DNA of 63,860 nt, counting the filler, from Chrysochromulina tobinii (taxonomy: Eukaryota), in assembly GCA_001275005.1 (NCBI GenBank). It is 6 parts of 6 records of this genome, joined end to end, with 100 filler letters (N's around TTAATTAATTAA, not from the genome) between each part and the next. Parts side by side here need not be neighbours in the genome. Positions count along the whole stretch, not along the records: positions 46,723 to 62,068 come from JWZX01000804.1; 5 more parts are not named here. One strand, written 5' to 3'. Below, one piece after another: positions 3,114 through 62,168 of the stretch; within the stretch, counting starts at the first letter, position 1, and each line of letters begins with the position of its first letter. Made by a program: the position numbers and the translations under genes. Under the pieces are notes generated by a model that was not told the origin of the DNA, ran no database searches, and was given only the letters and a program-made list of their open reading frames with translations.

Positions 3114-5216
3114 GCCACCACCCGTGAAAGCACCGCTGCTCTCGGCGGCCGCGCCGCCGCTGCTGGCCACCTCTGGTTCCACCCTCCTCCGATGGGCCCG
3201 CGGGCGCAGCGGCGAGGGCACCTGCTTCGCGAGGAGCGCCGACCAGCGGATGTGCTCGAACCACGCGTGGGCGCGCATTGTGGCGGGATCGGCCAGACGC
3301 GAATGCTCGTCGCGCACCAGGAGGCGATCGACGAGCTCGCGCGCGCCAGCCGAGGGCGACGGCGGCGCGCCGTCCTGAGCGCTCTCGTCAGGCTCCGGAA
3401 TCTGGCCCTCGCCGCCGTGATCAGGCGGTGTGGCGCCCGGTACGGCGTCCGTGCCGCCGCCCAGTACGGCGCCCAGCTCGAGCGCGCCTGCGGGCCACGG
3501 CGCTCGCCACGGCGCTCGCTCACCGTGGAGGATTTCGTCGATGAGCCGAGCGTGCGCATGCATGTGCTTTTGGTCGGCGGGGTATGGAGGACGACCAACA
3601 AGGCACTCAAACATGAGCACCCCGTAGGACCACCAGTCCGCCGCCACCGTGTACCCCTTGCCTCGGAGCACCTCGGGGGCGGCCGCGAACGGCGTGCCCA
3701 CGACCGTGTAGGTGCGCCCTCCCGAGGTGAGTCGCTCATCGCGCTTGGCCGCGTTCAGGTCGGCGATCTTGACGTGACCGAGCGCGTCGATGAGCACATT
3801 CTCGGCCTTTATGTCGCGGTGGATCACGCCTGCGTCGTGTAGTGCCTCGATGGCGAGCAGCAGCTCAGCGCATACGAAGCACGCGGCAGGCTCGGGCAGC
3901 CGTCCATACGGCCCCGAGCGGATGTGCAGCCCGAGGTCACCGCCGGCACAGTAGTCCATCACGAGGTACAGGTGCTGGCGGGTCTGGAACGCGCTGTGAA
4001 GCTGGACGACGAACGGATGACACGTCAAGGATTCGTCAAGGATTCGTCAAGGATGCGTCAAGGATTCGTCAACGCAACGCACCTGGACGACGAACGGATG
4101 ACGAATCCTTGACAAGATGTCTCGTTCGGCACGCGCGCCGCGCAGAGCGGTCACGCCGCCCTCGGCAGTGGCCTGCTGCGGCCCGATGCGCACCGCCTTG
4201 AGCGCGACCTGCTGCTTCGTATCGCGGCGCACGGCCTTGATGACTGTACCGAAACCACCGCGGCCGAGAACCTTTCGCTGCTCGAAGAGGGCCGCTCCGA
4301 GGGCCGAGGTGAGCGCTTCGGAGACCTCGGCGGAATGCGACTCGGCGCTCGCGAGATCGAGCGCCGACTTGCCCGAGAAGACGCCCGCGCACGCGGTCAG
4401 CAGCGTGTCGGCGTGCGCGGCGAGTAGCGCTTCGACGACGCTCGCTTGTGCCTTGAGGCACGCCCAATGCAGCGGCGTCACGCCGAATCGGTCGGGCGCA
4501 TCCACGCTGGCGCCGTGGCGCACGAGCGCGCGGACCGCGTCCGCCTGGCCGTAGCCCGCCGCATAGTGCAACGCGGTCCGCCCGACAGAATCGCGGTGGT
4601 CGACGAGCACGGCCGGCGGCCGACGGCGGGAGGGGTGGGCGGCGCGCACGCCATTGCGCTCGCCCGCCGCCGCAGAAGAGGATGGCGCAGCGGCGGAGGG
4701 GGCAGAGGCGGCAGCTGAGGGTGGCAGGGGTAGGGCGCTCGGCTGCAGCGGCGAAGACGAAGAAACTGGCAAGTCGGCAGATGGCGCCGCGAGTGCGAGC
4801 TGCTCGCGCAGTCTGTCCCACTGCTTGAGCCGGGCCAAGTCGACTGGCTGCGCGGCCAGCCAATCCCTCGCTTGGATGGCGGAGGTGGGCGAGGTGGAGA
4901 GCGCGGATGAGTAGAGCCCGATGTCACCGACGTCAGCCAGCTCGCCGTTTCCCGCGAAGTCCGGAAAGATCACCGGGATGTGGATGGAGGGACTCCTGCT
5001 GGGGACTGGACTCCTTCCAGAGCCGCTGCTCTTCGCTGAGTGGGTCGCTTCATTCTCTGAGTCGCTGCTGTTCGACGGACGGATCCCCGAGCCAAACAAG
5101 CTCCACCCGCTCCCGCTCTGCGTCGGTGAGCGACGTTGCGCGGCCGCCACCGTCGCCACAATTGCAGCCATCAAGAATAGATTCGGAGGGGCTCGGCGAG
5201 TTTCGTCGTCGGACAC
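2694..5216 (-). CDS. Ankyrin-repeat AGC-group Ser/Thr protein kinase (2 exons; intron 4002-4082)
   Basis: Ankyrin motifs GRTALHYAA and GVTPLHWAC. Kinase motifs LGRGGFGTV, VALK, HPFVVQ|LHSAFQT, HRDIKAENVL, IADLN (DFG variant), VGTPFAAAPE, DWWSYG. A GT..AG intron joins two same-frame ORFs. Confidence 0.92.
4002..4082 (-). other. 81-nt spliceosomal intron with 20-nt flanking duplication and internal 11-nt repeats
   Basis: GTGCGT...CCAG. CTGGACGACGAACGGATGAC occurs at 4002-4021 and 4083-4102. The intron contains an in-frame stop. Confidence 0.88.
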
Positions 5217-23071: not shown

Positions 23072-23551
23072 TCACGCAACCTTAATCGCGGCCCACCTTA
23101 TAGTTGGGTCCCTAAATAGTATAGGCGTTCTCTTTAGCTGCCCTTGGTCACTCCAAGTCCAAGTCGCCTCGCACACCTCGCTGAGGGCGCGGCGAAGCTG
23201 CCGATGCAGCCTGGGCGCGCCGAGATGTGCAGCTGCACGGTGAACGCTGCGCGCGCGCTGCGCGTCCCACGCGCCTCGGTCCAGCAGCAGCGAGACTAGC
23301 GCCGCCGCAAACTCGTCGCTTGTGCGCGCGATCGCGATCGCGCCGGGCGAGCGTGCCGTCAGTAGCCCGCGAGCGCCCAGGTGCGGCGTCGTCACGAGCG
23401 GTACCGCATGGCCCAGGGCTAGCATGCATTCGGTCGCGAGGCCTGAAGGCATAAGCACCGGTGCCGCGAGCACACGAGCCTCGAGCATCGCTGGACTCAA
23501 ATCCTCCACTCGTCCGAGCGACTCGACGCCCTCGGCACGTGACTCGCGCAC
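23072..23551 (-). pseudogene. Orphan C-terminal fragment of a GT4/GT-B glycosyltransferase-like gene
   Basis: ARVLAAPVLMPSGLATECMLALGHAVPLVTT..GARGL..IARTSDEFAAALVSLL.D..W resembles the GT4 nucleotide-sugar-binding domain. No in-frame upstream exon found. Confidence 0.55.
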
Positions 23552-23808
23552 CTGATGAGGGGGATAAGGGGCGCTGTGGAGAGCACTTGTATGCAGCTTA
23601 ATGTCCTCGGCACGTGACTCGCGCACCTGCACTCAGAGCCAATCAACGGTGATCCGAGTCAGTGGCCATCAATGGCCATCAGTGAGCTCGCGCACCTCCG
23701 CGCGGTCCTCATCAGATACTCATCAGATACTCATATTGATAGGTCATCAGAGGCCATCAGAGCTCAGAGGTCATCAGAGATCATCAGAGGTCATCAGAGC
23801 TCGCGCAC
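23552..23808 (-). repeat. Stack of three intron-like insertions, each starting at a copy of AG|GTGCGCGAG
   Basis: CTCGCGCACCT occurs four times (~23543, 23618, 23688, 23800). A 25-nt direct repeat lies at 23530-23554 and 23605-23629. Fillers are CTGATGACCT-type and the stack ends in CCCTCATCAG. Confidence 0.75.
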
Positions 23809-23967
23809 CTCCTTAGAGTAGTGAAAGTATGTCCCCCCCTAGAATTTAGAAAAGTGCGCCCGGTGTGCTCGGGCCTGAATACAACCTCGACGACGTCGGA
23901 ACGTATTACCGGAAAAGCAGGGAAAAGTGCGAAAACACCGGTCCCGCGCGCGCGGTCCCCGCACTGG

Positions 23968-28073: not shown

Positions 28074-31000
28074 ATGGAAGCCTTCCGCGCCGCCATCAAA
28101 GCGGCGGTGACGGCCAATGGCGGCGAGCCACACCATGCAATTCGGCATGAGCTGCGCGGGAGGCAGCCGTGGGTCGGTGACGGCTGGGTGGATGGTGACC
28201 TCGAGCTTCTTGCGCTCGCCATGTCCATCCGGCCGTGCCAACCCGACGAGGTCATCATCACATCGGCCGAGCGTGGCGATTGGTTTGGCGTCGTCCTCTC
28301 CGGCTCGCTCGCCGTCGAGAAGAAGGGCGCGCAGCTCGCCGTGCTCGGCCTGGGCGACGTTGTCGGCGAGATGGCGGCGCTGCACCCAGCAGCCGAGCGG
28401 TGCGCTACCGTGCGAGTGCGGGGGGCGAGTCCGAGCCGTCTCGCAACGATGACGACGAAGCAGCTGCAGAACTTTGTGCGCGACTGGCCGGGCCTTGGCA
28501 CGCGGCTCTTGCGCACGCTGGGGCGCATCGCAGCCGTGCGCCAGCTCGAGAATGGAAGGAGCGACCTATGCGCCTTGGTGCCGAGGAGCATAGAGTGGTC
28601 GATGACCGTGCCTGACCCTTCGACGGAGAAGTTCGATCGCTTCGACCTGCACGAGGCGTACCGCGCGCGGCTGGCGACGCACCTCTGCCGGCAGCTGGAG
28701 GTGGCGCCGGCGAGCGCGGGCCGCTTCGATGACGCCGAGCTCTCACTGCTCGTCGACCGCGCGCAGTTCCAGCCATTCCGCTCGGGACAGCGCCTCGTCG
28801 GCGAAGGCGAGCACATCGACAGCGTGATGGTGCTCCTTCTCGGCTCCGCCTCCTTCGAGCGCTGGTCCGTCGAGGTGGGCGAGGGCGGCGTCCTTGGCGC
28901 CCATGAGTTCTTCGGAGTGCCGTCGCTGAGCGCCGCCTCGGCGGTTGTGGCCAAAGGGGACGGTGTGCTCGCAGGCTGGACAACCCTGCATTTAACCGAA
29001 CTGATGGCGCATGACGGTCCGCTGATGATGCCGCTGATGACCTCGGATGACCTCTGATGACCTCTGATGGCGCACGACGGTCCGCTGATGGCCTCTGATG
29101 ATCCTCTGATGACCTCTGATGATCCTTGATGACCTCTGATGATGATGACCTCTGATGATCCCTGATGAACCGTCCAAAGAGTTCCCTCGGATGGCCTTTG
29201 ACGAACCTCTGATGGCCACTGATGAACCTCTGATGACCTCACTCATCAGGCCCGCTCGCGTACAAGCTCATCCAGTTCATCGGCCGCTTCGCGATGGGCA
29301 TCGGCGCGACCCTCTGCCACGTCCTCCGCGAAGACGCTGTGCATGCAAACACCATGCCGCAGCGCGAGTTCCGTGCGGGGGTTGGAGGCTCGCATAAGCG
29401 TGCTGGTGGCGTGCGATACGTGGTCATTGGCGGCAGCGGCAGCAACGGCGGCGGCAGCGGCAGCAGCAGCGGCGGCAGCGGCGGCAGCAGCGGCAGCGGC
29501 GGCAGCGGCGGCGGCGGCGGCGGCGGCGGCGGCAGTTCGGCAGCGGCCGAGGCTGTGTACATAGAGAAGATGCAGCAGCAGGCGGAGCGGCTACGTGCCC
29601 AGCTGAGCGAGAATGAGCGGCTGTCCGCCGCGCTGCAGGTGAGTGTCGTTAATTGCCTCTGATTGCCATTGATTACCACTGATTGCCACTGATTGCCACT
29701 GATTGCCAGCTGAGCGCGAGTGAGCGGCTGTCCGCCGCGCTGCAGGAGAAGACCCACGCGTCCGCGCGCTATCGGCTGCAGGTGAGTGTCGTTAATTGCC
29801 TCTGATTGCCACTGATTGCCACTGATTGCGTCCGCGCGCTATCGGCTGCAGGTGAGTGTCGTTAATTGCCTCTGATTGCCATTGATTGCCACTGATTGCC
29901 ACTGATTGCGTCCGCGCGCTATCGGCTGCAGTACGCCGCCGCAGCCAAGCGGCTCGAGCAGCGCGACGTTGACAATCGACGGCTACAGACCGAGCTGGAA
30001 GCGGCGTACACGCAGCTCGAGCAGCAGCGGGGCGCGAGCTCGGAGGCGCATGCCATCCTCGAAGAGCTCGCGGGTGTGGTTACGGCCGTGCTGGACGATC
30101 TGCCCAATCTGGATCACGAGATCCGTTCGCCCAACACGGCGCCCAATCTGGAGCACGAGGTCGGCCCGATCGGGTCGCCCGACACGGCGCCCGCGTACGG
30201 CTCCGCACCTTCGGATCTCGGCGAGGGCGAGGGCGCGCTCACGACGGCGCGCACCCCCAGGCAGCTGGCGCCCACGACGGCGCTCCCGAGCCTGCGCGCC
30301 GCCCTGAGCGCCGCCCTGCTCTCCGCGGTGCGCCTGCTGAGGGAGCACGCGCTCACGACGGCGCTCACGAGCACGCCCACGACGGCGCTCGAGCGGCCGC
30401 ACCCCAACTCGCCCGTCGGGTCCGCGCGCCAAGCGGCGCTCTCGCCGCCCAAGACGGCGCTCTCGCCGCCCAAGACGGCGCTCTCGTCGCTTGGGTGCAG
30501 CTCGGCCGGGGAGGCGCCCAAGACGGCGCCCAGCCTCCACAGCAGGCGCGGTTTCGCCAGCCGTGCCGCGTCCCTCGCCCACGACGGCGCGTGCGAGCCC
30601 GGGGCACCGGGCGCCCAAGACGGCGCCAGCGCGTGCAGCGCGACCGCGATGCTCGCAGACGCAACCGGCGGCGCTCGAGACGGCGCGAGCGCCGTCGTGA
30701 GCACCACCGACGCGCAGCCGGCCGCCCCGCCGGTGCACCACGCGAAGAGCGGCGCGGCGGCGCCCTCTCAGAACAGGGGGGCAACGGGCACGACGGGGAC
30801 GACGGGCGCCGCCGCGGGCGCGCCAGGCGCCGCCGCGGGCGCGCCTGCCACGCGCGAGTCCGTGTGCGAGATTGGCGTGCAGGCGGGCGGCTACCGCGTG
30901 CCTTACCCGAGCGTGGCTGCAGCGCCCCTGAGCGGCGAGGAGACGACACGCCCTCTGAGCCGCGCGTCTGCGCTGGTGCGTCGGGCGCACTCGAGCACGC

Positions 31001-36265: not shown

Positions 36266-36670
36266 ACGTTGGGCGAACGCCCAACAACTCTAGTTGGGCG
36301 AATCCGAATGCCCAACAACTCTAGAATCCAACTCTACACGCGCTAATACCGAGTCGTCGGGGGAAAGCCCAACAACTGCCGGAATCACTCCAGACGCGCT
36401 AATACCGAGTCGTCGGGGGAAGGCCCAACAACTCGCGGAATCACTCCCGACGCGCTAATACCGAGTCGTCGGGAGAACGCCCAACAACTCGCGGAATCAC
36501 TCCCGACGCGCTAATACCGAGTCGTCGGGAGAACGCCCAACAACTCGCGGAATCACTCTAGACGCGCTAATACCGAGTCGTCGGGAGAACGCCCAACAAC
36601 TCGCGGAATCACTCCAGACGCGCTAATACCGAGTCGTCGGGAGAACGCCCAACAACTCGCGGAATCACTC
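36259..36670. repeat. Tandem array of 6 x 56-nt units plus two degenerate hairpin units
   Basis: ACGCGCTAATACCGAGTCGTCGGGAGAACGCCCAACAACTCGCGGAATCACTCCCG starts at 36338, 36394, 36450, 36506, 36562 and 36618. Confidence 0.95.
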
Positions 36671-45600: not shown

Positions 45601-46622
45601 GCCGCCCTTCTCGATGATCAGGGCGGGCACGCCGCCGCCACCGGCAGCCACCGGCGAGGCGTAAATCGTGACGCCCTGCGCGATACGCAGCACGATGCCC
45701 GAGGGCACGAACACCTGGCATGTGAGAACGTAGGTTGGACCCCCCGCGAAGAGGAACGTGTCTTCCGAGAGGGTGCCGCACAGAGCAGGCGGCGAAAAAA
45801 AGGGGCTGACGCGATTGGTCGTCGTGTTGTCGCCGAGCTGGCCGTTGCCGTTGGAGCCCCAGCACTTGAGGGGCGTGCTGTTCGTCAGGTACGCGCACGT
45901 GTGGGAGTACCCGAGCGCCAGCAGCCCGACGGCGCCCCAGAAGTTGATCGTGGTCGGGGTGGCGCGTTGGGTCGTAGTCCCGTCGCCGAGCTGGCCGTTG
46001 CCGTTGGAGCCCCAGCACTTGAGGAGCGTGCTGCTCGTCAAGTACGCGCACGTGTGGTAGTACCCGAGCGCCAGCAGCCCGACGGCGCCGCCGACGTCGA
46101 TCGTGGTCGGGGTGGCGCGTTGGGCCGTAGTCCCGTCGCCGAGCTGGCCGTTGCCGTTGTAGCCCCAGCACTTGAGGATCGTGCTGCTCGTCAGGTACGC
46201 GCACGTGTGGTAGATCCCGAGCGCCAGCAGCGCGACGGCGCCGCCGACGTCGATCGTGGTCGGGGTGGCGCGATTGGTCGTCGTATTATCGCCAAGCTGG
46301 CCGTAGTTGTTGTAGCCCCAGCACTTGAGGATCGTGCTGCTCGTCAGGTACGCGCACGTGTGGGAGTACCCGAGCGCCAGCAGCCCGACGGCGCCGCCGA
46401 CGTTGATCGTGGTCGGGGTGGCGCGTTGGGCCGTCGTGCCGTCGCCGAGCTGGCCGTAGTAGTTGTCGCCCCAGCACTTGAGGAGCGTGCTGTTCGTCAG
46501 GTACGCGCACGTGTGGTGGTATCCGAGCGCCAGCAGCCCGACGGCGCCGCCGACGTTGATCGTGGTCGGGGTGGCGCGTTGGGCCGTCGTGCCGTCGCCG
46601 AGCTGGCCGTACCTGTTGGCGC
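39669..46622 (-). CDS. Giant modular cell-surface protein: RCC1-like repeats, 2 beta-helix modules, 4 DNRLRE-like domains with SPPP linkers, and TM; intron 42049-42205; truncated at both ends
   Basis: RCC1 repeats HTCAYL...LKCWG.N..GQLGDGTT with a 153-nt period, two beta-helix modules, four T.IRS..WDG..LVQF..ATLRY..HE..W..IDVT..V..W.SG..N.GW domains and TM VVIGVAVGVTAFVLLVAIIVC. The intron restores WDGNSA|TDVDF. Confidence 0.88.
45810..46622 (-). repeat. 153-nt tandem coding repeat (RCC1-like blades), about 5 copies
   Basis: CAGCACTTGAG anchors at 45860, 46013, 46166, 46319 and 46472. Confidence 0.92.
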
Positions 46623-46722: not shown

Positions 46723-48307
46723 GGCGCCCCCGGTGCCGCTGCCGCCGCTGCCGCCCCTGCCGCCGCTGCCGCCCCTGCCGCCCCTGCCGCCCCTGCCGCC
46801 CCTGCCGCCCCTGCCGCCCCTGCCGCCGCTGCCGCCGCTGCCGCCGCTGCCGCCGCGGCGTCGTCTCGTAACGAATCCGCGGCAGGGTTGATGAGGGACG
46901 CAATCATAGGCAATCAACATGCAATCAACAGTAACGAATCCGCGGCAGGGTTGCTCGTGTTCCGCTCCGCTGGTCGTACAGAATTGCTCCGCTGCCTCGG
47001 CTGGCGCGTTTATTCAGATCCGTTCCAAGTTGAACAAGCCGTGGCTGTGCTCGAGGCGGCCGGCCAGTACGAGCGAGCCGCAATCACAGCCATCTTCCAA
47101 AGCGGCGCGCATCCGGCGTACGATGAGCTGGGGCGAGCGGTGCGCTGCCTGGAGCGAGGTGGTGCGGCGAGCGCGGCGACGGCGCCCGAGCGTTCCTCGG
47201 CGCTCCGCATGATGGCGATGGTGCTCGCTGGCTTCCAGCCACGCGCACCTCTGTGGTGGTCGACTGTGCACTCGACCGCTGCCTCACTCTCGTCGCCGCA
47301 CCTGCGCCTGCTGCTCGCCGTCCTGTGCTCGTCCCTCTCGAGCATCGGCCTCAGCGGGAATCACTCGGGGGTCCGCAGCAGTACTGACGGCGGCAGCGGC
47401 GGGGGAAGGGGCAGCGGCGCCGGCGCCGGCGCCGGGGGCCTCGTGCGTGACACCTCGTTGGACTCATCGGGGCCCGATGTGATCGACATCTCCCCCTCCA
47501 CCTCGCCAGTCCCCAGCTCTCCCCCCTATTCTCCCCCCGTGCGCTCTCCGGTGCTACGAGGCACGCCGATGCGCTCGGGTGCCGACTTCGTCGGCGTCGC
47601 CGTCGGCCCCGAGCCGCCCCACGTTACCACGTCGATCCCTGGTGGAGGGCACGGCGCACATTTAGAGCACGGCGCACATTCAGAGCACGGCGACTCTTCA
47701 CAGATGCTGCAGCAGCTGGTGGTGGAGGCAGAGGGAGGCGCGCTCGATGGCGATCCGCACGGCGGCGCGCTCTCGGCTGCCGATGACTTTTACACCGACG
47801 CCCTCGCGATGGCATGCCGCTTCCTCCCCGACACACAGCTCCGCTCCCTCCTGCGCCGCCTGGTGACCGTAGCACGCGACGCTGGCTCGCTCGGCGCTCT
47901 CAGCCTAACGGGTCTCGGTCCTTCAGCGGTGCCCCTCCTCCAAGCGTACTTGGATCGAACTGCCGACGTGCAGTCGGTTGTGCTGCTCTGTGCGCACGGG
48001 CCTGCCTCTCTCCTCCGCCACGAGCGCGTGCAGCGATGGTTGAAGCTGTACGCGGAGATGCTCAACCAGTGGCGCTTATACCACGCGCGCTGTGCGCTCG
48101 ACATCGCGGTGGCCGCGAAGCTGAGGGAAGCTGGGCCGCCGCTGCCGCCGCCGCTGCCGCCGCCGTCTGCTTCGTTGCGCCCGAGCCTGGCGACCCTTGT
48201 GGAGCCCAGTGCACAGGTGTACGCGCGCTGTGGCTACTGTGCCAACCCGTTGACGACCAATGGGGCGCGCCATCTTGGGCGCTCTCCCGCGTCGGAGAGC
48301 GGCGGGA

Positions 48308-49119: not shown

Positions 49120-52008
49120 TCACTCAGCCAATATTCTCGCCCACGACGAACGCCTGTGGAGCTTTGTCGAGTTGGCAAGGAAGGTCCACGCCGTCTCGTA
49201 GGTAGGATGGAATTCGGGCTGGTAAGAGATGTCCGCCGCGCCAGTGAGCTTCGAGAAGAGCGGCTCGGCCTTCTCCCACTCCGCGTCGCTGATCGGCTGG
49301 TCGAGCCGCTCGGCCATCCCAAGCATTCGGAACATGAGCGAATTCGGTAACCATTGGAGCAGTCTTGTCTGCCGCGTGTCCTTGATGCCTCGCTGGAATT
49401 CATGAATCATTTGTCCATTGAGGGACGTGCGCACATTCTTGCGCGTGACGCCCACTAGAATTTGGCTGAACGGAGGGTCAACGACTGCGTGCGCGCCGTA
49501 GCATTCCTCGGAGGTCCTATAGGGCGTGACGCGTGACTTTTTCCTGCGACAGGGCACGCCACCGGCGGGCCAGCAGCAGCAGCACGTGGCGCACACGCAC
49601 ATGAGCACCAAGACAAGCAGCAGCAGCAGGAAAAGCACGAAGAGTGCAATCGTCGGCAGAGAGTTGACGTGGTTGGGGACGTCGTAGATTGAGGTCAACC
49701 AGAAATTGAGCGCCGGAAGCTCGAGCACCCCAGCGTCGGTGTTCATCCGTTTCGGCTCGTCCATGGCCTCCCGGAGCGTCTGGTTGTCGAAGGGACGCGA
49801 CCAGGCACCTGCTCGCACCCGCCACGTAGGCAGCTCTGCAAAGCCCCAGAACGTGAAGCCCACATGGAGCAACACGGTCCACGGCATCCACCAGAGCGTG
49901 GCCTCGATCAGCTTGTACGAGTAGGGTTGCGGCGTCGTGTGCAGGTAGAGCAGCGCGAAGCGCTCGCACAGCCACGAGCCGATGAAAAAGGCTGCTCCGG
50001 TGAGGTAGAGGATGGGGAGCACGCCAGCGTACGCAATCACAATGAAGAAATGCGCGTACGCGGTGCCAAGAAACGTGGGAAGGTCAAATTGGGGGCCAGA
50101 ATACAGCTTCTCCATGTCAGCGCGGTGGCGTTTGCCGTTCGCCGAGCAGCGCTTCTTGCAGTTAAACATGATGTACGGCACCCAGGGGGCCGTGAGGGCA
50201 GTGATCGCCTCAACGACCATTGCGGAGACGAGCAAAGTGCCCACGTCGAGGTGCCACAGCCATGACATCGTGAGGTGCGGGCCACGCATGATGAGGCCCT
50301 TGGGCCCGATGCCGCAGCAGATGAGCTTCGGGCACTGGCAATCGGGTTCATAGGAGCGATAGAACTCGGGCGGCGGCGCGGCCATCAGCAGGAGGGTGAC
50401 GAAACCCGTGTTGAACGCCTGCGCAAGGAAGATGGTCACCACTTGGTTCTGATGCCTGCCAGAGAGGGTTGGGTAACGCCCGAAATCACCAAGGGTGCTG
50501 ACGATCATCCCTATCGACGTGTTCACCATCACGAGGATGATCGAGGCGAGGAGAGGGAAGAGGCTGTCCACCATAATCTTCTTCGTCTCGGGGTCCCACT
50601 CGTTGAACAGTGCGTCTGGGTCCATCTTGGCCGCCTCTACCCCGATGATGACGCCGAAGCTGACGGGAAGGATGGCGACGAGCAATGCAGTCGCGATCAG
50701 GCGGCGACAGAAGGTGGTGAACGCCTTGAAGTCGAGGCGCAGCAGCCGATACGGCAAGTTCTCGTGCAGCACGTCGCGCGGATGCGGCGGCACGAAGGCG
50801 CGAAGCCGCCATCCTTTGTCACAGCAGCCACTCGGCGTCGTGCTGCGGAAGCGCCTCGCCTTGGGCTGCGTGATGTAGCCCCAGCCTCCTGGGTACAGTT
50901 CGAGCGCGGCGTTGCGTACGGGCTGCTCTTCAAAGATGACAAAGGCGCCGCAAACGTTCGTGATGGACGTGCTGGTAGTGATGGCCTTGCGCGTCTTCTT
51001 CAATCGCGAAGAGAGGCTCTCAATCTTAGTCTTGAGTTTTCCGATCACCTGCGTTTGCCGCCACACGGCAGGCCGTTCCTTGCGGAGCGCATTTTCGATG
51101 CGCAACTTGCGCTCAATGATGGCGTACTCGCGCTCGAGGGGAGTCTGCTGGACCGCATTGCGCAGCACGCTTGCGCAGTCCGTGATCAGGGCCACGTCCC
51201 ATACGGCGCACTCCTCGCGGCTCTTGCCGGTCGCCGCGGCGACGATAGTCTCGAGGTGCTCCTTGATCTCTTCCTTGGTTGCGTCTTGAGGCATGCCGTG
51301 CAGCTGGATCGCATACTCCGAAGTGAAGACATTGTTCGCCTCGTTGATGTCGTTGATCGATTCCACGCGGTTTCGGAAGCGCCGGACGCCCAGGAACAAC
51401 AGCACCGAGAAGAGCGCCTCGAGCAACCCGGCTACCGTGTTCATCGTCTTGCACCCGTCGTCACGGCATTCCGAGCGAGCGGCGATGGACAATTGGAGCA
51501 ACGCGGTTGGGTAGGTGTCCAACGCAACCGCCGAGAAGACTTCATGTGCGCGCGCGGCGGAGAAGGCGTACGATGGTACTGAGAGGAGCGCGCCCAAGAG
51601 GCAGTAGCCCGCGCAAAACTTGAGAAAGTCGAGGTACAAGGTCGGAACGAGGCCCACGGCATCGAGCACGTCGTTGGCAGGCGCGAGGAATTTCAGCTTT
51701 TCCACGGCGCCGTCGGCGCGCTTCTTGCGAGGGTGCACGGTGTTTGCTTGCTCCTCGGCTCTCTCTTTGGCCCACTTGAGCCACTCCTTGAGCTCACTGC
51801 GGGTCTTTACCTCCGGTTCGGCGGCCTCGGCAGCCAGTTTGGTAGCGGCCGCGGCCGCAATATCGGCTGCGGCTGCATTACGGAGCACCAGCATTTCGTC
51901 ATGCCGCAGCGCGCATTTTCCAATTTGGTTGAGCATCTCGCTCACGGCGTTCTGATCAGGAGGTGCTTTGTCAGTGCCATCCTCCTTCTTGGGCTCCACC
52001 TCGGCCAT
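49120..52008 (-). CDS. OSCA/TMEM63 (CSC1)-like multi-pass ion channel
   Basis: About 10 TM segments. LYLDFLKF, SEYAIQLHGMP, GAFVIFEE, PHPRDVLHENL, AQAFNTG, LYSGPQFDL, YAGVLPILY and ERFALL..PQPY motifs. Confidence 0.8.
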   Translation of the reverse strand: MAEVEPKKEDGTDKAPPDQNAVSEMLNQIGKCALRHDEMLVLRNAAAADIAAAAATKLAAEAAEPEVKTRSELKEWLKWAKERAEEQANTVHPRKKRADGAVEKLKFLAPANDVLDAVGLVPTLYLDFLKFCAGYCLLGALLSVPSYAFSAARAHEVFSAVALDTYPTALLQLSIAARSECRDDGCKTMNTVAGLLEALFSVLLFLGVRRFRNRVESINDINEANNVFTSEYAIQLHGMPQDATKEEIKEHLETIVAAATGKSREECAVWDVALITDCASVLRNAVQQTPLEREYAIIERKLRIENALRKERPAVWRQTQVIGKLKTKIESLSSRLKKTRKAITTSTSITNVCGAFVIFEEQPVRNAALELYPGGWGYITQPKARRFRSTTPSGCCDKGWRLRAFVPPHPRDVLHENLPYRLLRLDFKAFTTFCRRLIATALLVAILPVSFGVIIGVEAAKMDPDALFNEWDPETKKIMVDSLFPLLASIILVMVNTSIGMIVSTLGDFGRYPTLSGRHQNQVVTIFLAQAFNTGFVTLLLMAAPPPEFYRSYEPDCQCPKLICCGIGPKGLIMRGPHLTMSWLWHLDVGTLLVSAMVVEAITALTAPWVPYIMFNCKKRCSANGKRHRADMEKLYSGPQFDLPTFLGTAYAHFFIVIAYAGVLPILYLTGAAFFIGSWLCERFALLYLHTTPQPYSYKLIEATLWWMPWTVLLHVGFTFWGFAELPTWRVRAGAWSRPFDNQTLREAMDEPKRMNTDAGVLELPALNFWLTSIYDVPNHVNSLPTIALFVLFLLLLLVLVLMCVCATCCCCWPAGGVPCRRKKSRVTPYRTSEECYGAHAVVDPPFSQILVGVTRKNVRTSLNGQMIHEFQRGIKDTRQTRLLQWLPNSLMFRMLGMAERLDQPISDAEWEKAEPLFSKLTGAADISYQPEFHPTYETAWTFLANSTKLHRRSSWARILAE

Positions 52009-52367: not shown

Positions 52368-53294
52368 ATGAAGCAGTACGCACTGTGCAACCATGCGTCC
52401 TCCGAGCAAAGTCCAGTTTTGCGACGCTCATGGGAGAGCCCCGACCCGCTGCTCCGCACGCTCGGAGTGCGCTACCTTCAGATTGGTGGCGACATTTGGA
52501 ATCGTTGTCACGAAGGGTGGCTGAACATTGACGCGGCGTTCAAGAGCGAGGGACTTCATGGTGAATCCCAATTCGGCACGGACGATAAGGGTGGGCACAA
52601 CATGGCCATCTCATTCTCTGAGATCACCGTGCTGCCATTTGCTTCCAATAGTGTGCAGATGGTATACTCTGAACACATGATCGAACACATGCTCCCCGAT
52701 GCGGGTAGCAACCTGCTCCACGAGGCCTACCGCGTGCTCGTGCCGGATGGCATCCTCCGGCTCGCGACACCCGACCTGAGAAGGTACATGCTTGGCTACG
52801 TCGAATCCGGGGCGCGAGGCCAGGGCGGCACCAACGCCTTCTTGCGCGTGCATAGCCAGCGCTTTGGACCGATGCAGCAGCCGCGGCACCGACCGCCAAC
52901 CGACGCGACGATCGTCAACAATATCTTCCGCAATTACGGGCACAAGTGGGTGTACGACTTTGAGGAGCTGCGCTCGCGCGCGGTCGACGCGGGGATCGCA
53001 GCCGAGGATGTGTGCCAGAGCGATCGAGTTGGTCGCGGGCTCCCGCAAGCACTGCAACGGGCGCGCGACCGCGCCACCCACCCGCGCAATGAGTCGCTAG
53101 CGTGTTGGCTCGATCAAGCCGTGCGTGAGGATGAGTCGCTCTACGTGCACCTCGTCAAGCGCCGCCCGTGGCCGCCGAGCAATCGCTCCCACGTGCCCCC
53201 CTTTTGCCGGCCCGTGAGGGACTGGCTGCCATGCCATCCGGGGACGAGGGGCCGTGGGGGGCGGAGGCGTGGGGCGGGGGTCATGGGGCTCTAG
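52368..53294 (+). CDS. Class I SAM-dependent methyltransferase (type 11-like)
   Basis: LQIGG..GWLNID and LPFASNSVQMVYSEHMIEH..LLHEAYRVLVPDGILRLATPDL, then GHKWVYD. Confidence 0.85.
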   Translation: MKQYALCNHASSEQSPVLRRSWESPDPLLRTLGVRYLQIGGDIWNRCHEGWLNIDAAFKSEGLHGESQFGTDDKGGHNMAISFSEITVLPFASNSVQMVYSEHMIEHMLPDAGSNLLHEAYRVLVPDGILRLATPDLRRYMLGYVESGARGQGGTNAFLRVHSQRFGPMQQPRHRPPTDATIVNNIFRNYGHKWVYDFEELRSRAVDAGIAAEDVCQSDRVGRGLPQALQRARDRATHPRNESLACWLDQAVREDESLYVHLVKRRPWPPSNRSHVPPFCRPVRDWLPCHPGTRGRGGRRRGAGVMGL

Positions 53295-53488
53295 AAAAGT
53301 TTGTCTAATGTCTCACCGGACTGGAATTCCTACCTGACGAGGCGGGTGGGGGGTGGGACGCTAGAGCGAGTGGGGATGTCTGTTTTGGCTGAGGTTTTTT
53401 GGCGCGAAGACGCGTTCTGCTTCTCTCGCGCGCCTCAATCCCTCAGCAAAAGAGGCAAGTTTTTGCTCGGGCGCTCGTCGCCCTGGTC

Positions 53489-56400
53489 ATGATCAATGAT
53501 CAGCTGCGCCGGACGATTGCGCCGGGCTCGCAAGCGCAGGAGCTCTGCTACGAGTCATGCTCGTCCACGAGCTCCGCTCCTGACGACGACGTGGCCGCTG
53601 CCTTCGGAGGCCGCGGCGGCAGCGGCCGATGGTCGCCCTTCACTGCAGGCAGCACGGCAGCCATGCCAAGCTCGCCATTTCTTGCCTCGCCAGACGGTAA
53701 CTCGTCCTCGTGCGGCGGGAGTGCTGTGGCGCTCACGCCCGAGCTGCGACCGGCCGAGGCTCCCGTCGCGCTCGAAGACTGGTCACCGACGAGTGGCGAC
53801 ATACTTGCACCGAGTGCAACCGTAGAGGCTGCTGCTGCGCAGGCAGCAGAGACAGCGGTGCTGATCTCGCCACCGGCAGTTGGACAGGCTCGGCAGCCCG
53901 CCTCGTCAGCGCTGACTGCACGCCAACTGCTCTTGGCGATGGACGCGGATGGCGCCGCACCAGCGGCCTCGGAGGATGCGGCGCTGGCCGGGGCGGCGCT
54001 GGCCATGGCGGCTGAGGCGCTTCCTTTTGGCTCGACTGCGATCCCGCTTTGCCCTGTGGGTGACGAGCCGCGTATGCGTGCTCAGCTGAGCCGCTGCCGC
54101 GCGCAGCTCCAAGCGGCACAGGTGCAGCTGCAGCTGGCGACCTCGCAACTGGGCGCTACGAGTGAACGGCTAGAGTGCTGCGAGAGGGAGCATGCAACGC
54201 TCACACATAAGGTGGCCGAGCTCGAGACGGTTCAGCGGGCGCTCGGAGTCACCGAGGGCTCCACCGAGGAGGCCGACGGCCACGGCGTGCTCGGCGGCGC
54301 CGTCGCGGGCGCCCGAGCGGCCCGTGTGATCCCTTCTCTCGATGCCCTGCGAGGGGCTGTGGGGCGCCTCGCCGACGAGCGGATCGAGGCGCTCGAGACG
54401 GCGCTCAGCACCAAGGACGCGCAGCTGCACGAGCTGCAGGCGCTCGCGTGGGGCGCGTATGCCGACGACAGCGCCGTCGCGGCCGAGGTGCAGCGGTTAC
54501 ACATCTGATGACATCTGATTACACATCTGATGACATCTGACATCTGATGATATCTGATTGCCTCCCTCATCAGGTGCAGCGGTTACACGACGAGTTGGCG
54601 CATGCATCCTCCAAGCATCGACAGCTCACGGCGCACGCACAGGCGGCAGAAGCCACGTTCGCTGAGAGGGTTCGCAACTCTCATGCCGAGCAGGAGGAGC
54701 TCCGCGCGAGCATCGCCGCCCTAACGGCTCAGCTCCGCTCCCAGCAGGCGTCGGAGGCGTCTCTGCGTGCGGCGTACGAGGACGTGAAGGCATCAGCAAG
54801 TGCGAGCGCGGCGGAGGCGGCGAGGCTGGCTACGGTCGAGGCAAGGTTACTCGCCACGCTAACGGATCGGGAGCAACAGCTGCACGTGGCCATCGCACAG
54901 CTCGAAACCCACGCCGCCGAGATCGATGCCTTACGGCGCGGCTCGTCCGCCCATCAGCTCTCCGCGCGCTATGATGAGCAGATCGAGATGCTCCAACGGC
55001 AGGTAAGCGAGCAGGCCGCGCGGGATGCGCAGGCGCTGTATCAGGCGCAGGCGGCCGTTGAGGCGGCGAGGGCGGAGGCGCGTGAGGCACACGAGCGCGC
55101 CCGCCGCAGCCGCGAGCTCGCGGAGTGCCTCGAGATCGAGCAGGCGGCCCATTCACAGACCAGGGCGCAGGCGGCCGAGCGGTTGGCGGCGATGGCCGAG
55201 CGCGAGCGGGCGTTGCTCAAGGAGCTCTCCACTGTCCAGAAGCAGCAGCAGCAGCAGCAGCAGCAGATTCAGCAGCAGCAGCAGCAGATCAAGCAGCAGC
55301 TCAACGCTGCGCCCAACTCGCCTGCTGTCCACACAGCCGGCGGTTGCGCATGGATCGAGGACAGCACGATGAGCGCCTTCCCCAACCCAGTCACCGCGTC
55401 GCCGCCCTCGCCCCCCACCGCGAACGCCGACAGCGGCAGCGCCGGCAGCGATGGGCTCGAGCCGGAAGGGGACGCTGCATCGGGGGGTCTCCCCGTCGTT
55501 TCTTCGCCGCCAGCCCAGGGACTCGTCCTTCCTAATATGGGACTCGTCCTGCCCGAGTCGCTCGTCGCGTCGTCGTGGTCACCGCCCTCGGCTTCGTCAA
55601 CCTCCTCGGCACGCTCGACGCACTCTTTGCGCTCCACGCGCGCCATGCCGATGTCGCCCTTGCCGCTCGCGCCGCCGCCGCGCGGCCTCGAGGCCATGCT
55701 GCAGTCGGCTCAACGTGAGATCGAGGGGCTGCACGACGTGGTGCGTCAGCAGATGCACGTTCAGGGCGTCCTCGAGAACGAGCGCGCGGCCGTGCTCGAG
55801 CGTGAGCAACGGGCGGTCAGCGAGCACGTCGCGCTGCTCGCGCACACCGAGAGGCTAGAGACCTTGCTTGACGACGCTCGCCAGACGGCGACCCGAGCGC
55901 GTTCGCAAGCGGCGCAGGAGGTCGAGGCACGTGCGGCCGTTGAGGCGCAGCTCTCGGAGGCCAAGGCGCGCACAGCGCAGCTCGAGGCCAAGCACGCGCA
56001 GCTCGAGGCGAGCGCCGCCATGCAGCTCGAGACGGCCGTTCGGCAGCTGACCGACACGGTGGCCGCTCATCTCACGGAGATCTCGATGATGCGAGAGGTG
56101 GCCGAGCGCGAGAAGGCTGAGCTCAAGAGCGAGCTCAAGGCGCAGCATGCAATCGCGCTCAAGGCCGCCGAGGAGCGGCTGCACAACGCGCCGCCGCCGC
56201 GCCAGCCGCCTCAGCCGCATCACGACGCGCTGCTCGGCGAGGTGCCCAGCACGGCGCTCGAGACGGCGCTCCATAATAGGCAGGAGGTGCCCAGTGCGGC
56301 GCCGCCCCTCGGCGAGGCGCTTCGTCAAACCTCGGAGCTGTGGGGACAGCCGAGCGCAGAGGCGGCGGCGGCGGTGGGCGCGGCGATGGGCGCGGCGGTG

Positions 56401-59400
56401 GGCGGCCTCGGGCTGCCGAGCAGTGCGGCTGAGGAGGCGGCGAAGCTCGAAGCGGACGCTAGGCTACAATGCCTTTCCACAGAGCTGCGCTCGTACGAGT
56501 TGACGCAGCTCGCAGAGGCCGCCGACCGTGCGGGTCTCTCCGCGCGCCTCGAGCGCGCCGTGATGGCCGCGGCGCTGGCAGACGAGCGTGCGGACTCAGC
56601 GGAGGCAGCTCTCAAAGAGGCGCGTGCGGAGGCGGCGAGGGCGGCAGCGGTCGCCGAGATGGCGCAGGCGGAGGCAGCGCAGGCGACGGCGGCCGCGGCC
56701 GCCGCGGCCATGGCCCGTTTGCCCACCCTCGCAATGAGTAGCCGCTCGCCCTCACCGCGGCGAGACGAGGAGGACGAGGCTGCTGACAGCGCCTCGAGGG
56801 CGGTCGTCTCGCGTGTGATCGCGTCGGAGGCGCGCCTTTCGCCTTGTCTCTCGCTCGAGCACCAGCACGGCGCCGTCCCAAGCGCTGCCGCCGCGCTCGT
56901 CGTGACATCTGCGACGCCCGCAGGCGGTGACGGGGGCGGCCTCCGCGGCAGCGCCGATGATGAGGGGGGGGGCAGCGCCGGAGGCGTGCTCTTGTCTCCA
57001 GCGCCGTCTCACATGATGCGCTCCCCTCCAGTCGGCCACGCAAGCAGCAGCAGCAGCTGGCGCCACATGATGCGCCACGGGCCTCTCGGCTCCCCCGCGA
57101 CTAAGAGCCGCATGGAACGGCTCGAGAGGCATGCAGAGCGCTCGGCGGCACAGCACGCGCGCGAGGCGACTGGGCTGCGCGCCAAGGTCGAGGCGCTTGA
57201 GGAGCAGCTGCTCGCTTTTGGGAAAGGTCTTTGGCAGCCCACCCAGATGTACAGCTCCACTCCACTGCGGAGCTCGCTCGCATTCTCACCTGGAGATGCC
57301 GAGGCGCTCGCATTCTCACCTGGAGATGCCGACTCGCCGAGCGACACGTCATCAGCCGAGGCGCCCAGCGGCATGCAGCTTGACACGTCATCAGCCGAGG
57401 CGCCCAGCGGCATGCAGCTTGACACGTCATCGGCCGAGGCGCCCAGCGGCATGCAGCTTGAGGAGAAGGGCAAGCTCCTCGACGCGCCCAAGTCGGCGCC
57501 CAAGTCGGCGCCCAAGTCGGCGCCCATGTCGGCGCTGGCCGCGCGACCCACCGACAAGCCGACGGACAAGGACGCTTCGAAAGGCGTGGGCCGAACGCCC
57601 CTCATCGATGCCGCTCGCAGCGGCCAGCTGAATGTGGCGGCGGTGCATCGGCGTGTGCAGGCGGAGGCGGCGGCCATGCGCGCGGCGCTCGCCGCGGCGC
57701 TCGCCTCTCTCGAGGCCGAGTTGGTGGCTGAGAGGGAGGCGCGCCGTGCTGAGCGCGCGGACGCGCAGGAGATGCAGACGGAGCTGCAGGAGATGCAGAC
57801 GGAGCTCGAGGCGGCGAAGGCGCACGCCCAGCAGCAGCACGATCAGCTCATGGCGATGCACCAGGCGGCTGCGTCGCTCGGCCGTCGGCATGGCAACAGC
57901 GCGCTCGACTCGGCGCTCGCCGAGGCCCATGCGGCTGAGGCGCAGGCGCTCAACTCGGCGCTCGCCTTGCGCCAACAGCTCGCGACTGAGCAGAGACGAG
58001 CGGCCGTTCGTGAGAAGGAGGCAGCTGCCCTCGTCGAATCGGCCGAGGCGAAGGCTGTCACGCTGCAGCTCGCACTCGACGATGCCCGTGCGGCGGCCGA
58101 GGAGGCGGCGGCCGAGCACGCCGCCGCGATGGCGGCGGCGACGGAGGCGGCACGTCAAGAGGAGGCGGCGGCCAAGGCGGCGGAGGGGGAGCGGGACGAG
58201 GCGGAGAGGCGGCGGGCGGAGGCCGAGGCCAGCCGAGAGGAGGTGGAGGTACGCCTGGCGCACGCCGAGGCGAAGGTGCGTGGCGCGGAGGCGGCCAAGC
58301 TGGAGGCGGAGGCAAGGCAGCAGGAGGCACAGGCGGCCAAGCTGGAGGCGGAGGCGAGGCAGCAGGAGGCACAGGCGGCGCGAGAGCAAGCGGAGCTCGC
58401 AGCCGCTACTGCCGAGGAGCAGCGTCAAGCGATCGAGGAGCAGCTGCGGCTGCTGCTGACCTCCGAGCAGACTGTACGTGAAGCAGAGGGACGAATGCTT
58501 GCGGTGAAGCAGGCGTCGCCTCGAGCGCGCGCCATCTCGAGCGCGTTACAGCCGCCAGTCGAGCAGGCGGCATCGCCTCGGCGACGCCCTGACGTGGACC
58601 AGACGTCGCCAAGACGACGCGAGGTAGAGCACCGAGCCCTAGCAGCGGAAGACCAAGCACGGGCAGCGGAGCTGCTCGTTCAGGACGCCGAGCGAGCGCA
58701 GAGGACGGCCGAGGCAGCGCGCGAGGCGGCGGAGTCCGCGCTCGAGACGGCGCTCGTGGCTTCGGAGGCACGCGTGCAGGCCGCGCAGGAGCAGCAGCGC
58801 GCGCTCGAGACGGCGCTCGAGGCGGCGGAGCGCCGATGCCTTGCGGCGGAGCGCGATGCGGAGCGGCTCGAGGAGGCCAGGGCGCGGGCCGAGGATGCGC
58901 TGGCCCATGCGAAGCGGGTACAGGAGGCCGAGATGGCGGCGCAGCAGGCGGAGCTGGAGGCGAGGGATGCGCAGCACGCGGCTGAGCTAGGTACGCTGGA
59001 GGCAGAGAGGCAGAGGGAGCAGCGGGCGGCCTCGGCGGCGCGGGAGGCGGAGGAGGCGGCGCGCGCGGCCGAGAAGGCAGCGAGGGAGGCGGAGGCGTGC
59101 GCGGTCGGCAAGGCGGCGGAGGCGGCGGCCCGTGAGGCGGCCGTGTGGCAGATGCGCCAGGCTGCTGAGCGAGCCTCGATTGCATTGCAGTCGCAATCAG
59201 AGGAGGATCAGCAGCGGGCGGCCTACGAGACAGCTCAGGCGCGTGCCGCCGCTCAGGCGGCCGCCGAAGCTGCCGCCGCTCAGGCGGCGGCCAAGGCGGC
59301 GGCCGAGGCGGTGGCGGCCAAGGCCACCGCGGCGCTGGCGCAGATGGACAAGGAGGCGCACCAGCATCGGAGGGAGCATGAGGCGGCGATGGCTGCCGCA

Positions 59401-62068
59401 GCTGAGGCATTGCGGGAATCCGAGGTCGCGTGGCAGGCCGCGTGCCTGCAGGCGGCGGCAACCCAGGAGGCCTTGTGCGCGTGCGAGGCGGCCAAGGCGG
59501 CGGCAGAGGCGGACAAGGCGGTGCTCGCGGCTGTCGCCGACGCGGCCGAGAAAGCGAGGCTCGCCCTCGAGGCCGACAAGGCCACGGCAGAGGCGGCCAG
59601 GGCGGCGGCGCAGGCGGAGGAGCTCCGGCTTCTGCAGGAAGCGCTCCGGTGTGAACGAGAACGGTGTGAATCACAGGCGGAGGAGCTCCGGCTTCTGCAG
59701 GAAGCGCACGCGGCGATGGTGCAGGAGGCGGAGGAGGGGGGCAAGGCCCGTGACGCGCTAGCGTCGTCACAAGCGGCGCTAGTTGAGGCACAGGCGGCGG
59801 TGGCGGAGGCGCAGTCGGAGCGGGCGGAGTCCTTCGCGGCGTACGAGGAGATGAGGGCGAGCTACGAGGAGATGAAGGCGAGATGCGAGGAGATGAAGGC
59901 AGCGCAAGCCGAGGCGGAGACGGCACGAGCGCTGGCGGAGGCGGCGGCTCGTCGAGCCATTACGGCTCTAGCGGAGGCGGAGGCGAAACGAACCGAGGCG
60001 GAGTGGAGCCAGACGGAGGCTGAGGCGGCACTGGCTGAGGCACAGTCGCAGCGACACCTGAGTGAGCAGCGGCAGCAGGAGGAGCAGCTGGAGCTGCAGC
60101 AGGCTGCTGCCGAGGTGGGCACACTCAGCGTGCGGGAGCAAGAGACCTCGGTGCGCCTCCGAGCGACCTCGACGGAGCTCGAGGCAGCGAGATCGCGCCT
60201 CGACGAGCTCACACGGGAGCTCAGCGGAGCTCGAGCGAGCTCGAGCGAGCTCGCGCGGGAGATCGAGGTCCTCAGGCGGGAAGCCGCCGAGCTGCACGCC
60301 GCCGCACACTCCGCCGCCCTCACAGCCGCGGCAAAAGATGCAGATTTGCACGCGGAGCGGGAGGAGGTGGCTCGGGCGGCGCGGCTGACTCGCGTAGAGG
60401 CGGCCGCTGCTTGCGAGGCTCTGAGCGTCGAGCTGGGCGAGGCTGAGAGGGAGGCTGTGAAGAGGGAGGATGTGAAGAGGGAGGCTGAGAGGGAGGCTGG
60501 CTCGCAGCTCGCCCACGCACAGCTCCAGCTGGCCAGGATGCACGATGAGCTGGACGGCATGCTCGCCGAACGAGACGCCGTGGCCATCGAGCGCGATGCG
60601 CTGCAGTCGACGCTCGCCACAACGCGCGCCAACGGCTCTGTGGAATCCCGAGCCTTGATTGAGAGTCATGCGGCACAGGTGCAGCGCATGCAGAGCCTCG
60701 AGCGCGCGCGCGCCGCCGCCACTGAGAAGCAGCTCGAGGCGGCGACGACGGCGCGCGAGGCGCTGGTGCGCGAGGTGGAGCAGCTCCGTGCGGCAGCGCT
60801 ACCCGTCGCGGACGAATTGGAACGGTTACGAGTTTCGTTCGACGAATTGGAGCGGTTACGAGTTTCGTTCGAGGCGGCCGAGGCTCGCACTGCGGAGCTC
60901 GAGCGTTCACAGCGCGAGGCGGCGGCGAGGTCCGCGGGGGCTGAGGCCGACGGGCAGCGGCGCAGTTTGATCGTCCGGCGGCTGCTGGGTGCGGAGCTGC
61001 GTGCTTGCGAGCAGAGCGAACAGCGCGTGGCCGCCGCAAGCGCCGTCACGAGCGCGGCCCTACTGGCAGCCGAGGAGGCGCTCGCGACGGCGCGCCGCAC
61101 GGCCACGCGCGAGGCCGAGGAGGCGGTCGCGGCCGCACGCGCCGAGTGCCGGCGCGAACACGAGCAGTCGTTGCAGGCGCACCGCGCCGCGTGGCAAGCA
61201 GAGACGGCGCGCGAAACGGCCGCCGCTCTCGAAGCAGCGGCGACACACGAAGCGGCGGCGGTGGCGGCGGCGACGGCGGCGGCGGCGGCGGCGGCGGCCG
61301 CGCTTACGAGTCAGTCGGACGAGCAACTCGCCGAGGTGCGTTCCGCTTACGAGCGCCAAGTGACGCAACTGCAGATGAGCCTCGCCGAGCTGCAGGCCGC
61401 GCATGCCGCGGCGCTCACGACGGCGCCGCTGCTCGAGGCCGATCGGCTGGCGACGAAGCTCGCGGAGGCGCAGCTGGCGCACGAGGTGGCGCTCACGACG
61501 GCGCTCGACGCCGCCCAGGCGGCCCACGAGAGAGCGCTCGACGCGGCGCTCAGCGAGCTCCACAGTCGGCACGAGGCAGCCTTCGAGGGGGCACGGAGCA
61601 GCCACCTCGCCGAGCTGCGGGCGCTCGAGACGGCGCGCGCGGCGGCGGAGGCACGCCTCGCCGAGCTGCAGGCGCTCGAGACGGCGCTGCGCGCCTCCGA
61701 GGCCAAGCTCGAGCTCGAATCTCAACAGAGGAGATCTGTGGAGGAGGCGCTCGAGACGGCGCTGCGCGCCTCCGAGGCCAAGCTCGAGCTCGAATCGCGT
61801 CGTTGTGAGCGCGCCTCGCGGGAGGCGGCGAGCGCGGCCGAGGCGGCGGAGGCGGCGGAGGCTCGGCACGCGGCGGCCTTGGAGTCGGAGCGTTCGGCCG
61901 CCGAGGCGAAGGTGCAGGAGGTCATGCAAAAGGCGGCCGAGGCTGCTGAGGCGACGCACATGCAGATGCAGCAGGTGGTCGATCAGATGAGTGATGCGTT
62001 CGAAGCGCGCCTCGCGAGTGCGCTGAATGAGGCCGCCGCCGCCGCCGCCAAGCAGACGAGCGAGGCGG
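53489..62068 (+). CDS. Very large Ala/Glu-rich coiled-coil protein (>2800 aa), 3'-truncated; intron 54488-54573
   Basis: Two ORFs joined in frame by a phase-0 intron (AAE|VQRLHDEL). Heptad-like A/E/R/Q composition and many internal tandem duplications. Confidence 0.8.
54488..54573 (+). other. 86-nt intron with 17-nt flanking duplication
   Basis: AGGTGCAGCGGTTACAC at 54486-54502 and 54572-54588. Filler is (ATCTGATGAC)n ending GATTGCCTCCCTCATCAG. Confidence 0.9.
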
Positions 62069-62168
62069 NNNNNNNNNNNNNNNNNNNNNNNNNNNNNNNN
62101 NNNNNNNNNNNNTTAATTAATTAANNNNNNNNNNNNNNNNNNNNNNNNNNNNNNNNNNNNNNNNNNNN
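62069..62168. other. Artificial contig-joining spacer
   Basis: N44-TTAATTAATTAA-N44. Confidence 0.97.

Follow-up and report, generated by a model that had tools for sequence, protein, structure and literature searches.

The best-described relatives of the intron class reported here are introners, which, as far as the available parts of PMC9860276, 10.1101/2020.10.14.339549 and PMC12130899 go, comprise many related introns that carry one splice site with them and take the other from the duplicated target. According to the same portions of these sources, introners also share with the present class an unchanged mRNA, a GC content below that of the exons and an occurrence in haptophytes. Their target-site duplications (TSDs) are given there as 3-9 nt and fixed per class (3-9 bp in PMC9860276, 3-8 nt in 10.1101/2020.10.14.339549), whereas in the present class the copy is 11-55 nt long, members have just one end in common and their bodies are of low complexity. 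A Chrysochromulina introner pictured in the available part of PMC9860276 has a 4-nt TSD and a polarity opposite to that of the present class. The filters described there demand similarity at both ends and remove repeat-rich families, so that this survey would skip the present class. The survey's genome list includes C. tobinii, a name that occurs nowhere else in the examined text.

Other routes of intron gain share different features with this class. In Daphnia, staggered double-strand breaks are described with a direct repeat of the adjacent exon at the intron's far end, internal repeats and a repair model (PMC4202315; PMC3443670, both in the parts available), all of which recur here. In Daphnia the repeats measure 4-12 bp, and most inserts are of unknown origin (available part of PMC4202315); the present class, by contrast, has longer repeats and inserts that derive from other introns, a derivation traced for two pairs. 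Tandem genomic duplication of an AGGT exon segment also draws its splice sites from a duplicated AG/GT, and those of our introns in which both sites are copied match it directly (PMC3443670, in part). It differs in that the copies here are separated by foreign filler containing branch-point-like units, usually with an acceptor or donor that is foreign as well, and in that 27/45 targets among the matches listed have no AG before the first copy. Intron transfer and transposition likewise use an existing intron as the source of a new one; in the portion of PMC3443670 available, transfer is paralogue recombination and transposition moves a whole intron without a long duplication. Here, in contrast, what passes between unrelated genes, on ~14 nt of homology, is a partial copy. 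Microhomology-mediated template switching with templated insertion (MMBIR/FoSTeS) is known as a sporadic mutation. It shares with the present class a duplication together with an insertion templated elsewhere and microhomology at the junctions, but here it would recurrently give functional introns from a genome-wide donor pool. The Emiliania genome paper reportedly describes 10-11 bp tandem repeats in introns, which may be related filler. Our literature search, whose coverage excluded most subscription journals, found no description of the present class.

An 86-nt intron spliced from RNA

The window, i.e. the whole stretch that was analysed, is 63,860 nt of Chrysochromulina tobinii DNA (GCA_001275005.1), and all coordinates count along it (Table 1). 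A sequence-only reading had proposed a precise 86-nt intron whose donor comes from a duplicated target and whose splicing restores the uninterrupted sequence and links two frames, and had named an RNA junction at 54487/54574 as the check. Four of 21 sequencing runs were compared over 53700-55200, namely two of the six RNA runs (X13 and X14) and the DNA runs X10 and X21. The RNA contigs of both X13 and X14 skip exactly 86 nt and contain the junction (shorter side 68 and 255 letters), which confirms the proposal in each of these respects. In X10, which may be the window's own source, one contig covers all 1501 bases with 0 differences and the intron present; X21 is without a piece across the site (0.03 of words; repeat and chance pieces only) and so offers no evidence. 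Neither DNA run shows the junction. With its GT..AG ends, its removal from the RNA of both runs and its presence in DNA, this is a spliceosomal intron, probably of U2 type.

Removal of the intron fuses ORF 53393-54508 in frame with ORF 54541-62124; if it is kept, the frame ends at the TGA at 54506. Since the RNA contigs skip the 86 nt, the two ORFs are one gene of at least 2829 codons. Two separately transcribed genes are refuted for X13 and X14 by the contigs spanning the junction. The downstream coding part is likely a coiled coil. No Pfam family was found in the host gene, the lone match being a weak coiled-coil below the cutoff, and no full-length homologue was found in a search that took in proteins of 584-2000 aa, shorter than this one. 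Named relatives are Prymnesium and Haptolina for the neighbouring gene and an Isochrysis homologue for the host gene, which places the host among the prymnesiophyte haptophytes. Frameshifted partial paralogues of the host gene (P0085, P0099, P0100 and P0087) have the intron in one gene call and lack it in two. The adjoining genes are free of introns: 49123-52008 (minus) has a weak match to OSCA/TMEM63-type 7TM proteins and 52371-53291 encodes a Methyltransf_11 protein, and contigs as long as 34 kb contain relatives at 85-98% identity.

Table 1. Positions of the intron, its parts, its host gene and related elements in the window.
Feature	Position	Strand	Description and basis
Upstream coding part of host gene	53489..54487	+	333 codons from first in-frame ATG (putative start); covered by RNA contigs within 53700-55200
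Downstream coding part of host gene	54574..62061	+	at least 2496 codons, low-complexity, enters N gap
Intron	54488..54573	+	GT..AG, spliceosomal, phase 0, 86 nt; skipped in 2/2 RNA runs compared
First copy of 17-nt repeat	54486..54502	+	exon-end AG plus 15 nt forming intron head with GT donor
Second copy of 17-nt repeat	54572..54588	+	acceptor AG plus first 15 nt of downstream exon
Filler	54503..54553	+	degenerate ~10-nt units on CTGA; repeat analysis
Perfect 2 x 22-nt tandem	54497..54540	+	across target/filler junction; local slippage
Family 3′ terminus CTGATTGCCTCCCTCATCAG	54554..54573	+	branch-point-like CTGAT, pyrimidine run, CAG acceptor
Mirror-type candidate intron	4002..4082	-	81 nt; 20-nt duplication, 11-nt units; splicing predicted
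Three stacked inserts	23543..23810	-	target repeated four times; repeat analysis
Three mirror-type candidate introns	29639..29931	+	107, 70 and 80 nt; copy of upstream exon end 24-39 nt
Duplication with filler	46868..46953	-	23-nt duplication; terminus cut short at shared CA, without acceptor AG

The intron is 44% GC in a 2-kb bin of 69%. It is flanked by a direct repeat, as in break-repair intron gain, which is exact over 17 nt with a period of 86, and only one of the 18 equivalent cut registers gives GT..AG, thereby defining the intron. The 17-nt duplication containing AG/GT claimed from the sequence therefore stands as a repeat, but not as the unit of duplication: copies in the family described below start at GT and, because AG precedes the first copy in only 18/45 family sites without a preceding element (G in 35/45; both among the matches listed), the duplicated stretch in the strict sense is 15 nt, with a shared AG in addition. 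Filler and family terminus make up the other 71/86 nt, so this is not the purely duplicated exon of a tandem genomic duplication.

The same reading had described CTGATGA and TCATCAG at the ends of the filler as inverted; an inverted-repeat pair of transposon type is not supported. The filler itself starts AT; CTGATGA lies at 54505 and recurs at 54527 and 54544, three times in all, and is thus a repeat unit, not a terminal inverted repeat. A hairpin is likewise rejected, the fold z-score of the intron (0.48) being no better than shuffles. Rfam gave no match over the intron, its two chance-level matches both lying away from it. A second TTACAC is indeed present, as had been noted, but in place of re-use from the target it belongs to the perfect 22-nt tandem, i.e. 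to local slippage. The general branch-point consensus is CTRAY, and the CTGAT 20 nt before the intron's 3′ end is presumably branch-point-like on that basis.

Homologues of the host gene at about 36-47% identity, among them the Isochrysis transcriptome entry P0091, are continuous through the intron site in one frame. Because P0093 and P0101 enter intron-like sequence at a shared later point and P0098 begins in intron-like sequence, these three gene calls look genomic and are probably DNA-derived. Their continuity favours a gain of the intron in this lineage, at a date that the homologues do not fix. A close paralogue, P0085/P0100, also reads through the site; its cluster-mate P0099 contains the intron, and P0085/P0100 may therefore be spliced transcripts. 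The evidence for an empty site thus comes from distant homologues, together with one close paralogue that is ambiguous.

The intron class and its duplications

The last ~40 nt of the intron are found in 311 contigs of X10 with a summed depth of 24,676, compared with 35.5 on the flanks, a crude sign of many places and not a copy number. An exact scan with the 20-nt terminus gave at least 136 loci, in metagenomes of mixed cultures and of other origin. The numerous related copies within genes by which introner surveys recognise their families are thus present (at least 136 loci; 311 X10 contigs), and the 86-nt intron is a clean, RNA-confirmed member of a class with introner-like splice-site logic. 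Among the matches listed are 174 distinct terminus sites, followed by GT in 104 and by GC in 30; 104 sites were kept after 9 had been left out for short flanks and 61 because repeat filler follows them. The bases right after CAG are copied upstream in 49/104 exact-terminus sites among the matches listed (null 0.24%). With a relaxed terminus and the window included, an upstream copy was found in 64/118 sites among the matches listed (null 0.54% of 930). In these 64, again among the matches listed, the duplication is 11-55 nt long (median 23) and the intron copy begins GT or GC in 61. An anchored duplication is absent from the other 54/118 sites among the matches listed, which counts against the template-switching reading given below, detection being blind to copies under about 9 nt in these sites.

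Removal of the insert opens the frame in 24/30 scorable cases, compared with 6/30 unspliced, and the antisense frame is also open in 17/30 (all among the matches listed), which makes the frame test soft in GC-rich DNA. No improvement of the donor after insertion was detected at +3..+6 among the matches listed (11/240 vs 36/1053, p = 0.44). In four cases the intron copy has GT where the exon has GC, and in one the reverse holds, too few to interpret; two of the four are the L051/L110 pair discussed below. Viral contigs gave 0 matches for two patterns.

Could these be classical introners? Such an element would be a short non-autonomous transposon with its own ends and a dedicated enzyme, carrying the acceptor and taking the donor from the target-site duplication. 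The terminus is conserved in many places, the splice-site logic is that of Symbiodinium and Polarella classes 4/5 and 6/8/10 (10.1101/2020.10.14.339549, in the part available), and introners are known in marine Chrysochromulina MAGs (PMC9860276, likewise in part). The duplication, however, is 11-55 nt and not fixed at the 3-9 nt of TIR and MITE elements, and there are no terminal inverted repeats. Nor is the 5′ end shared: heads are locus-specific exon copies, so the similarity to both splice boundaries that the introner survey uses is lacking, and among the matches listed only L051/L110 are alike end to end among different loci. Moreover, bodies are mosaics with exon pieces of other genes, and the mirror forms use other heads. 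We therefore regard a classical introner as very unlikely, and its TIR-element form as largely refuted.

In the mirror forms a 5′ head is carried in and the acceptor comes from a copy of the upstream exon end, and in the both-sides forms the copy supplies both splice sites. Rough type counts A/B/mid are 41/17/18, with 187 unclassed, of 263 among the matches listed. Four mirror candidates lie in the window. Splicing of the three on the plus strand is predicted from the frame, which has 0 stops after their removal and at least 7 before, and L060 contains the 29639 head again. In two places (window 46.9 kb and L041) the terminus is truncated at a microhomology of 2 nt.

Several further repeats were observed. 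Arrays of 10-, 22- and 14-nt units at 29001-29249, 7685-7742, 14933-15069 and 35040-35098, some ending in an acceptor-like CAG, are likely more introns of the same kind with other unit sequences. A second recurrent 3′-end family, a GCAAGTGCTC-based motif running to CAG with the same repeat units, occurs in L007, L041, L047, L118 and the window at 23552-23610 (minus). L021 near 309 and the 3′ part of L089 have duplications that are not GT-initial and join at AG/CAG; the donor would sit within the copy, adding a few codons. Long tandem arrays at 18642-19638, 21479-22206, 45829-46610 and 36306-36670 have periods of 168, 84, 153 and 56 nt, and the first three look like protein repeats (by eye NHL-, LRR- and RCC1-like).

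Neighbouring elements share filler in 7/59 pairs, compared with 1.5% of 9887 (0/2000 permutations; among the matches listed), but such sharing is a minority, with a median shared extra length of 0 and the 7 pairs coming from 5 loci, 3 of them from L079. Stacking raises the possibility that old introns were remodelled: insertion would be mimicked if a local tandem duplication spanned the acceptor, the old head was lost and the minisatellite evolved in concert. Consistent with this, 15/60 duplications among the matches listed directly follow another terminus copy, stacked inserts are common, alleles vary in the length of their filler (L002 and L004 by 80 nt), and neither presence/absence of a whole element nor an empty allele was found in 13 overlapping locus pairs (7 in a smaller set) among the matches listed. 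Yet the 86-nt intron has a perfect duplication with no older intron beside it, three probably genomic homologues are without an intron at the site, and unrelated genes hold near-identical introns, so that remodelling seems quite unlikely. The pair L037/L089, considered as an empty allele, proved to be a shared segment joined to different upstream genes. L037 (minus, from ~605 of the reversed locus) and L089 share >500 nt, introns included, with unrelated upstream sequences, and in L037 the join comes immediately behind the CAG of an intron, a hint that the same copying process also shuffles exons.

Exon fragments carried between genes

In two cases an intron holds an exon piece of an unrelated gene, joined at 13/14-13/15 nt of homology. 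Both donor-recipient pairs were picked by inspecting ranked lists, two being found among the matches listed, and among 1496 draws of random exon-intron pairs their scores, 10 and 9, were attained in 0.6% and 2.1%. In the first, L110, a gene with a C2 domain, and the unrelated L051 have 73-nt introns identical at 71/73 positions. The intron head matches L110's exon at 19/20 nt and L051's at 11/12 and, as the match spans 20 nt of the one exon and 12 of the other, L110 is the donor. In the second, L134's own 25-nt copy switches at a 13/15 homology into 9 nt of exon sequence of L074, a gamma-tubulin complex protein gene, and continues with L074's filler and then the terminus. Homology lies on both sides in L110/L051 and at the copy end in L074/L134. 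From the latter position we infer extension of a sense-strand 3′ end on an antisense template, which in this one clear pair points to donor DNA rather than intron RNA as the template. A donor of the 86-nt intron was not found, the best local alignments among the at least 136 loci being generic arrays.

At a little better than even confidence, we propose that DNA template switching, primed by homology, makes a copy of part of an existing intron while duplicating the target, and that products which splice cleanly are kept by selection. The observations behind this are the precise splicing, the class with its common terminus, ~10-nt filler and variable duplication and, in the two pairs of other loci, filler copied between unrelated genes with donor exon sequence included. 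Synthesis would start from the sense-strand 3′ end that lies at the duplication's far end; a short homology would select the donor, whose antisense DNA strand would be the template, and copying would run through CAG. The copying end of the broken or stalled DNA would then rejoin its own gene at a G or AG followed by GT, upstream of its departure, by microhomology-mediated template switching or synthesis-dependent repair. Such a switch out and back upstream would yield a duplication and an insert without a staggered cutter and in either polarity. Slippage would reshape the filler and selection would retain copies that begin GT or GC, which would leave the mRNA unchanged and explain the precision of insertion. 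Stacking at existing introns would follow from the ready homology that their termini offer. Each new intron could in turn serve as a donor, with no transposase or fixed master element required. Junctions at the copy end fit this scheme, with a mean microhomology of 2.5 nt against 1.27 for a blunt-join null (40/60 scorable, p = 0.001) and at least 4 nt in 11/40 against 6.8% under the null, all among the matches listed. The sharing of filler between neighbours and the three continuous homologues also count in its favour; the small number of donor-recipient pairs and the 13 locus pairs lacking presence/absence of a whole element count against it. The donor-site consensus accounts equally well for the G or AG that precedes the first copy.

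RNA could also have been the template. A reverse transcriptase would prime at a nick opposite GT and copy an excised intron or pre-mRNA backwards from CAG, ending by microhomology annealing with a variable target duplication as in LINE/SINE retrotransposition. Hallmarks of target-primed reverse transcription are a fixed 3′ end, a variable 5′ end, a long and variable duplication and 5′-junction microhomology. The present class has each of these, its fixed 3′ end being the acceptor, and so shares with SINEs and retroposed RNA the variable TSD, 5′ truncation and microhomology. The whole 73-nt intron was copied in L110/L051, and same-locus pairs lie on one strand in 42/43 cases among the matches listed. 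LINE and Copia elements are known in other haptophytes (PMC12480563, in the part available). The terminus-side junction falls exactly after CAG in the scored sites, as an excised-intron RNA template predicts too; the duplication search was anchored on this CAG. Other features sit poorly with RNA. The 13/15 homology in L074/L134 is at what would be the end of reverse transcription, not its start, and a random template reaches it in ~2% of draws. There is no poly(A) or other tail, no master body and no sign of a Pol III or structured-RNA origin (mosaic bodies, no Rfam match). Mirror forms and termini cut at microhomology demand extra assumptions here, whereas these and the both-sides forms agree with a DNA process that is independent of RNA ends. 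On balance we consider RNA-templated insertion unlikely, though not negligible.

Beyond DNA template switching as the route of single insertions, a wider claim, which we advance tentatively and at somewhat less than even confidence, is that of a self-propagating intron system free of transposase. In it, repeat-filled introns would act as genome-wide repair templates, breaks in exons would pick donors by ~14 nt of homology, and spliced products would become donors that carry a piece of host exon.

Implications for intron gain

Where most new introns come from is not known (PMC4202315 and PMC3443670, in the parts available). Recent surveys credit transposons, and repair that copies existing introns would be a third route of intron gain. 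Such a class would multiply introns without a transposon and leave traceable links between donors and recipients, and introner searches filter it out by design. Its members also break gene models, as in the unspliced gene calls P0084 and P0099, which stop inside the intron. The host is a freshwater alga that carries many young copies and grows in mixed culture, so population sequencing offers a way of testing intron gain by repair. If the proposal is true, introns beget introns, and their genealogy would be readable from the exon fragments they carry.
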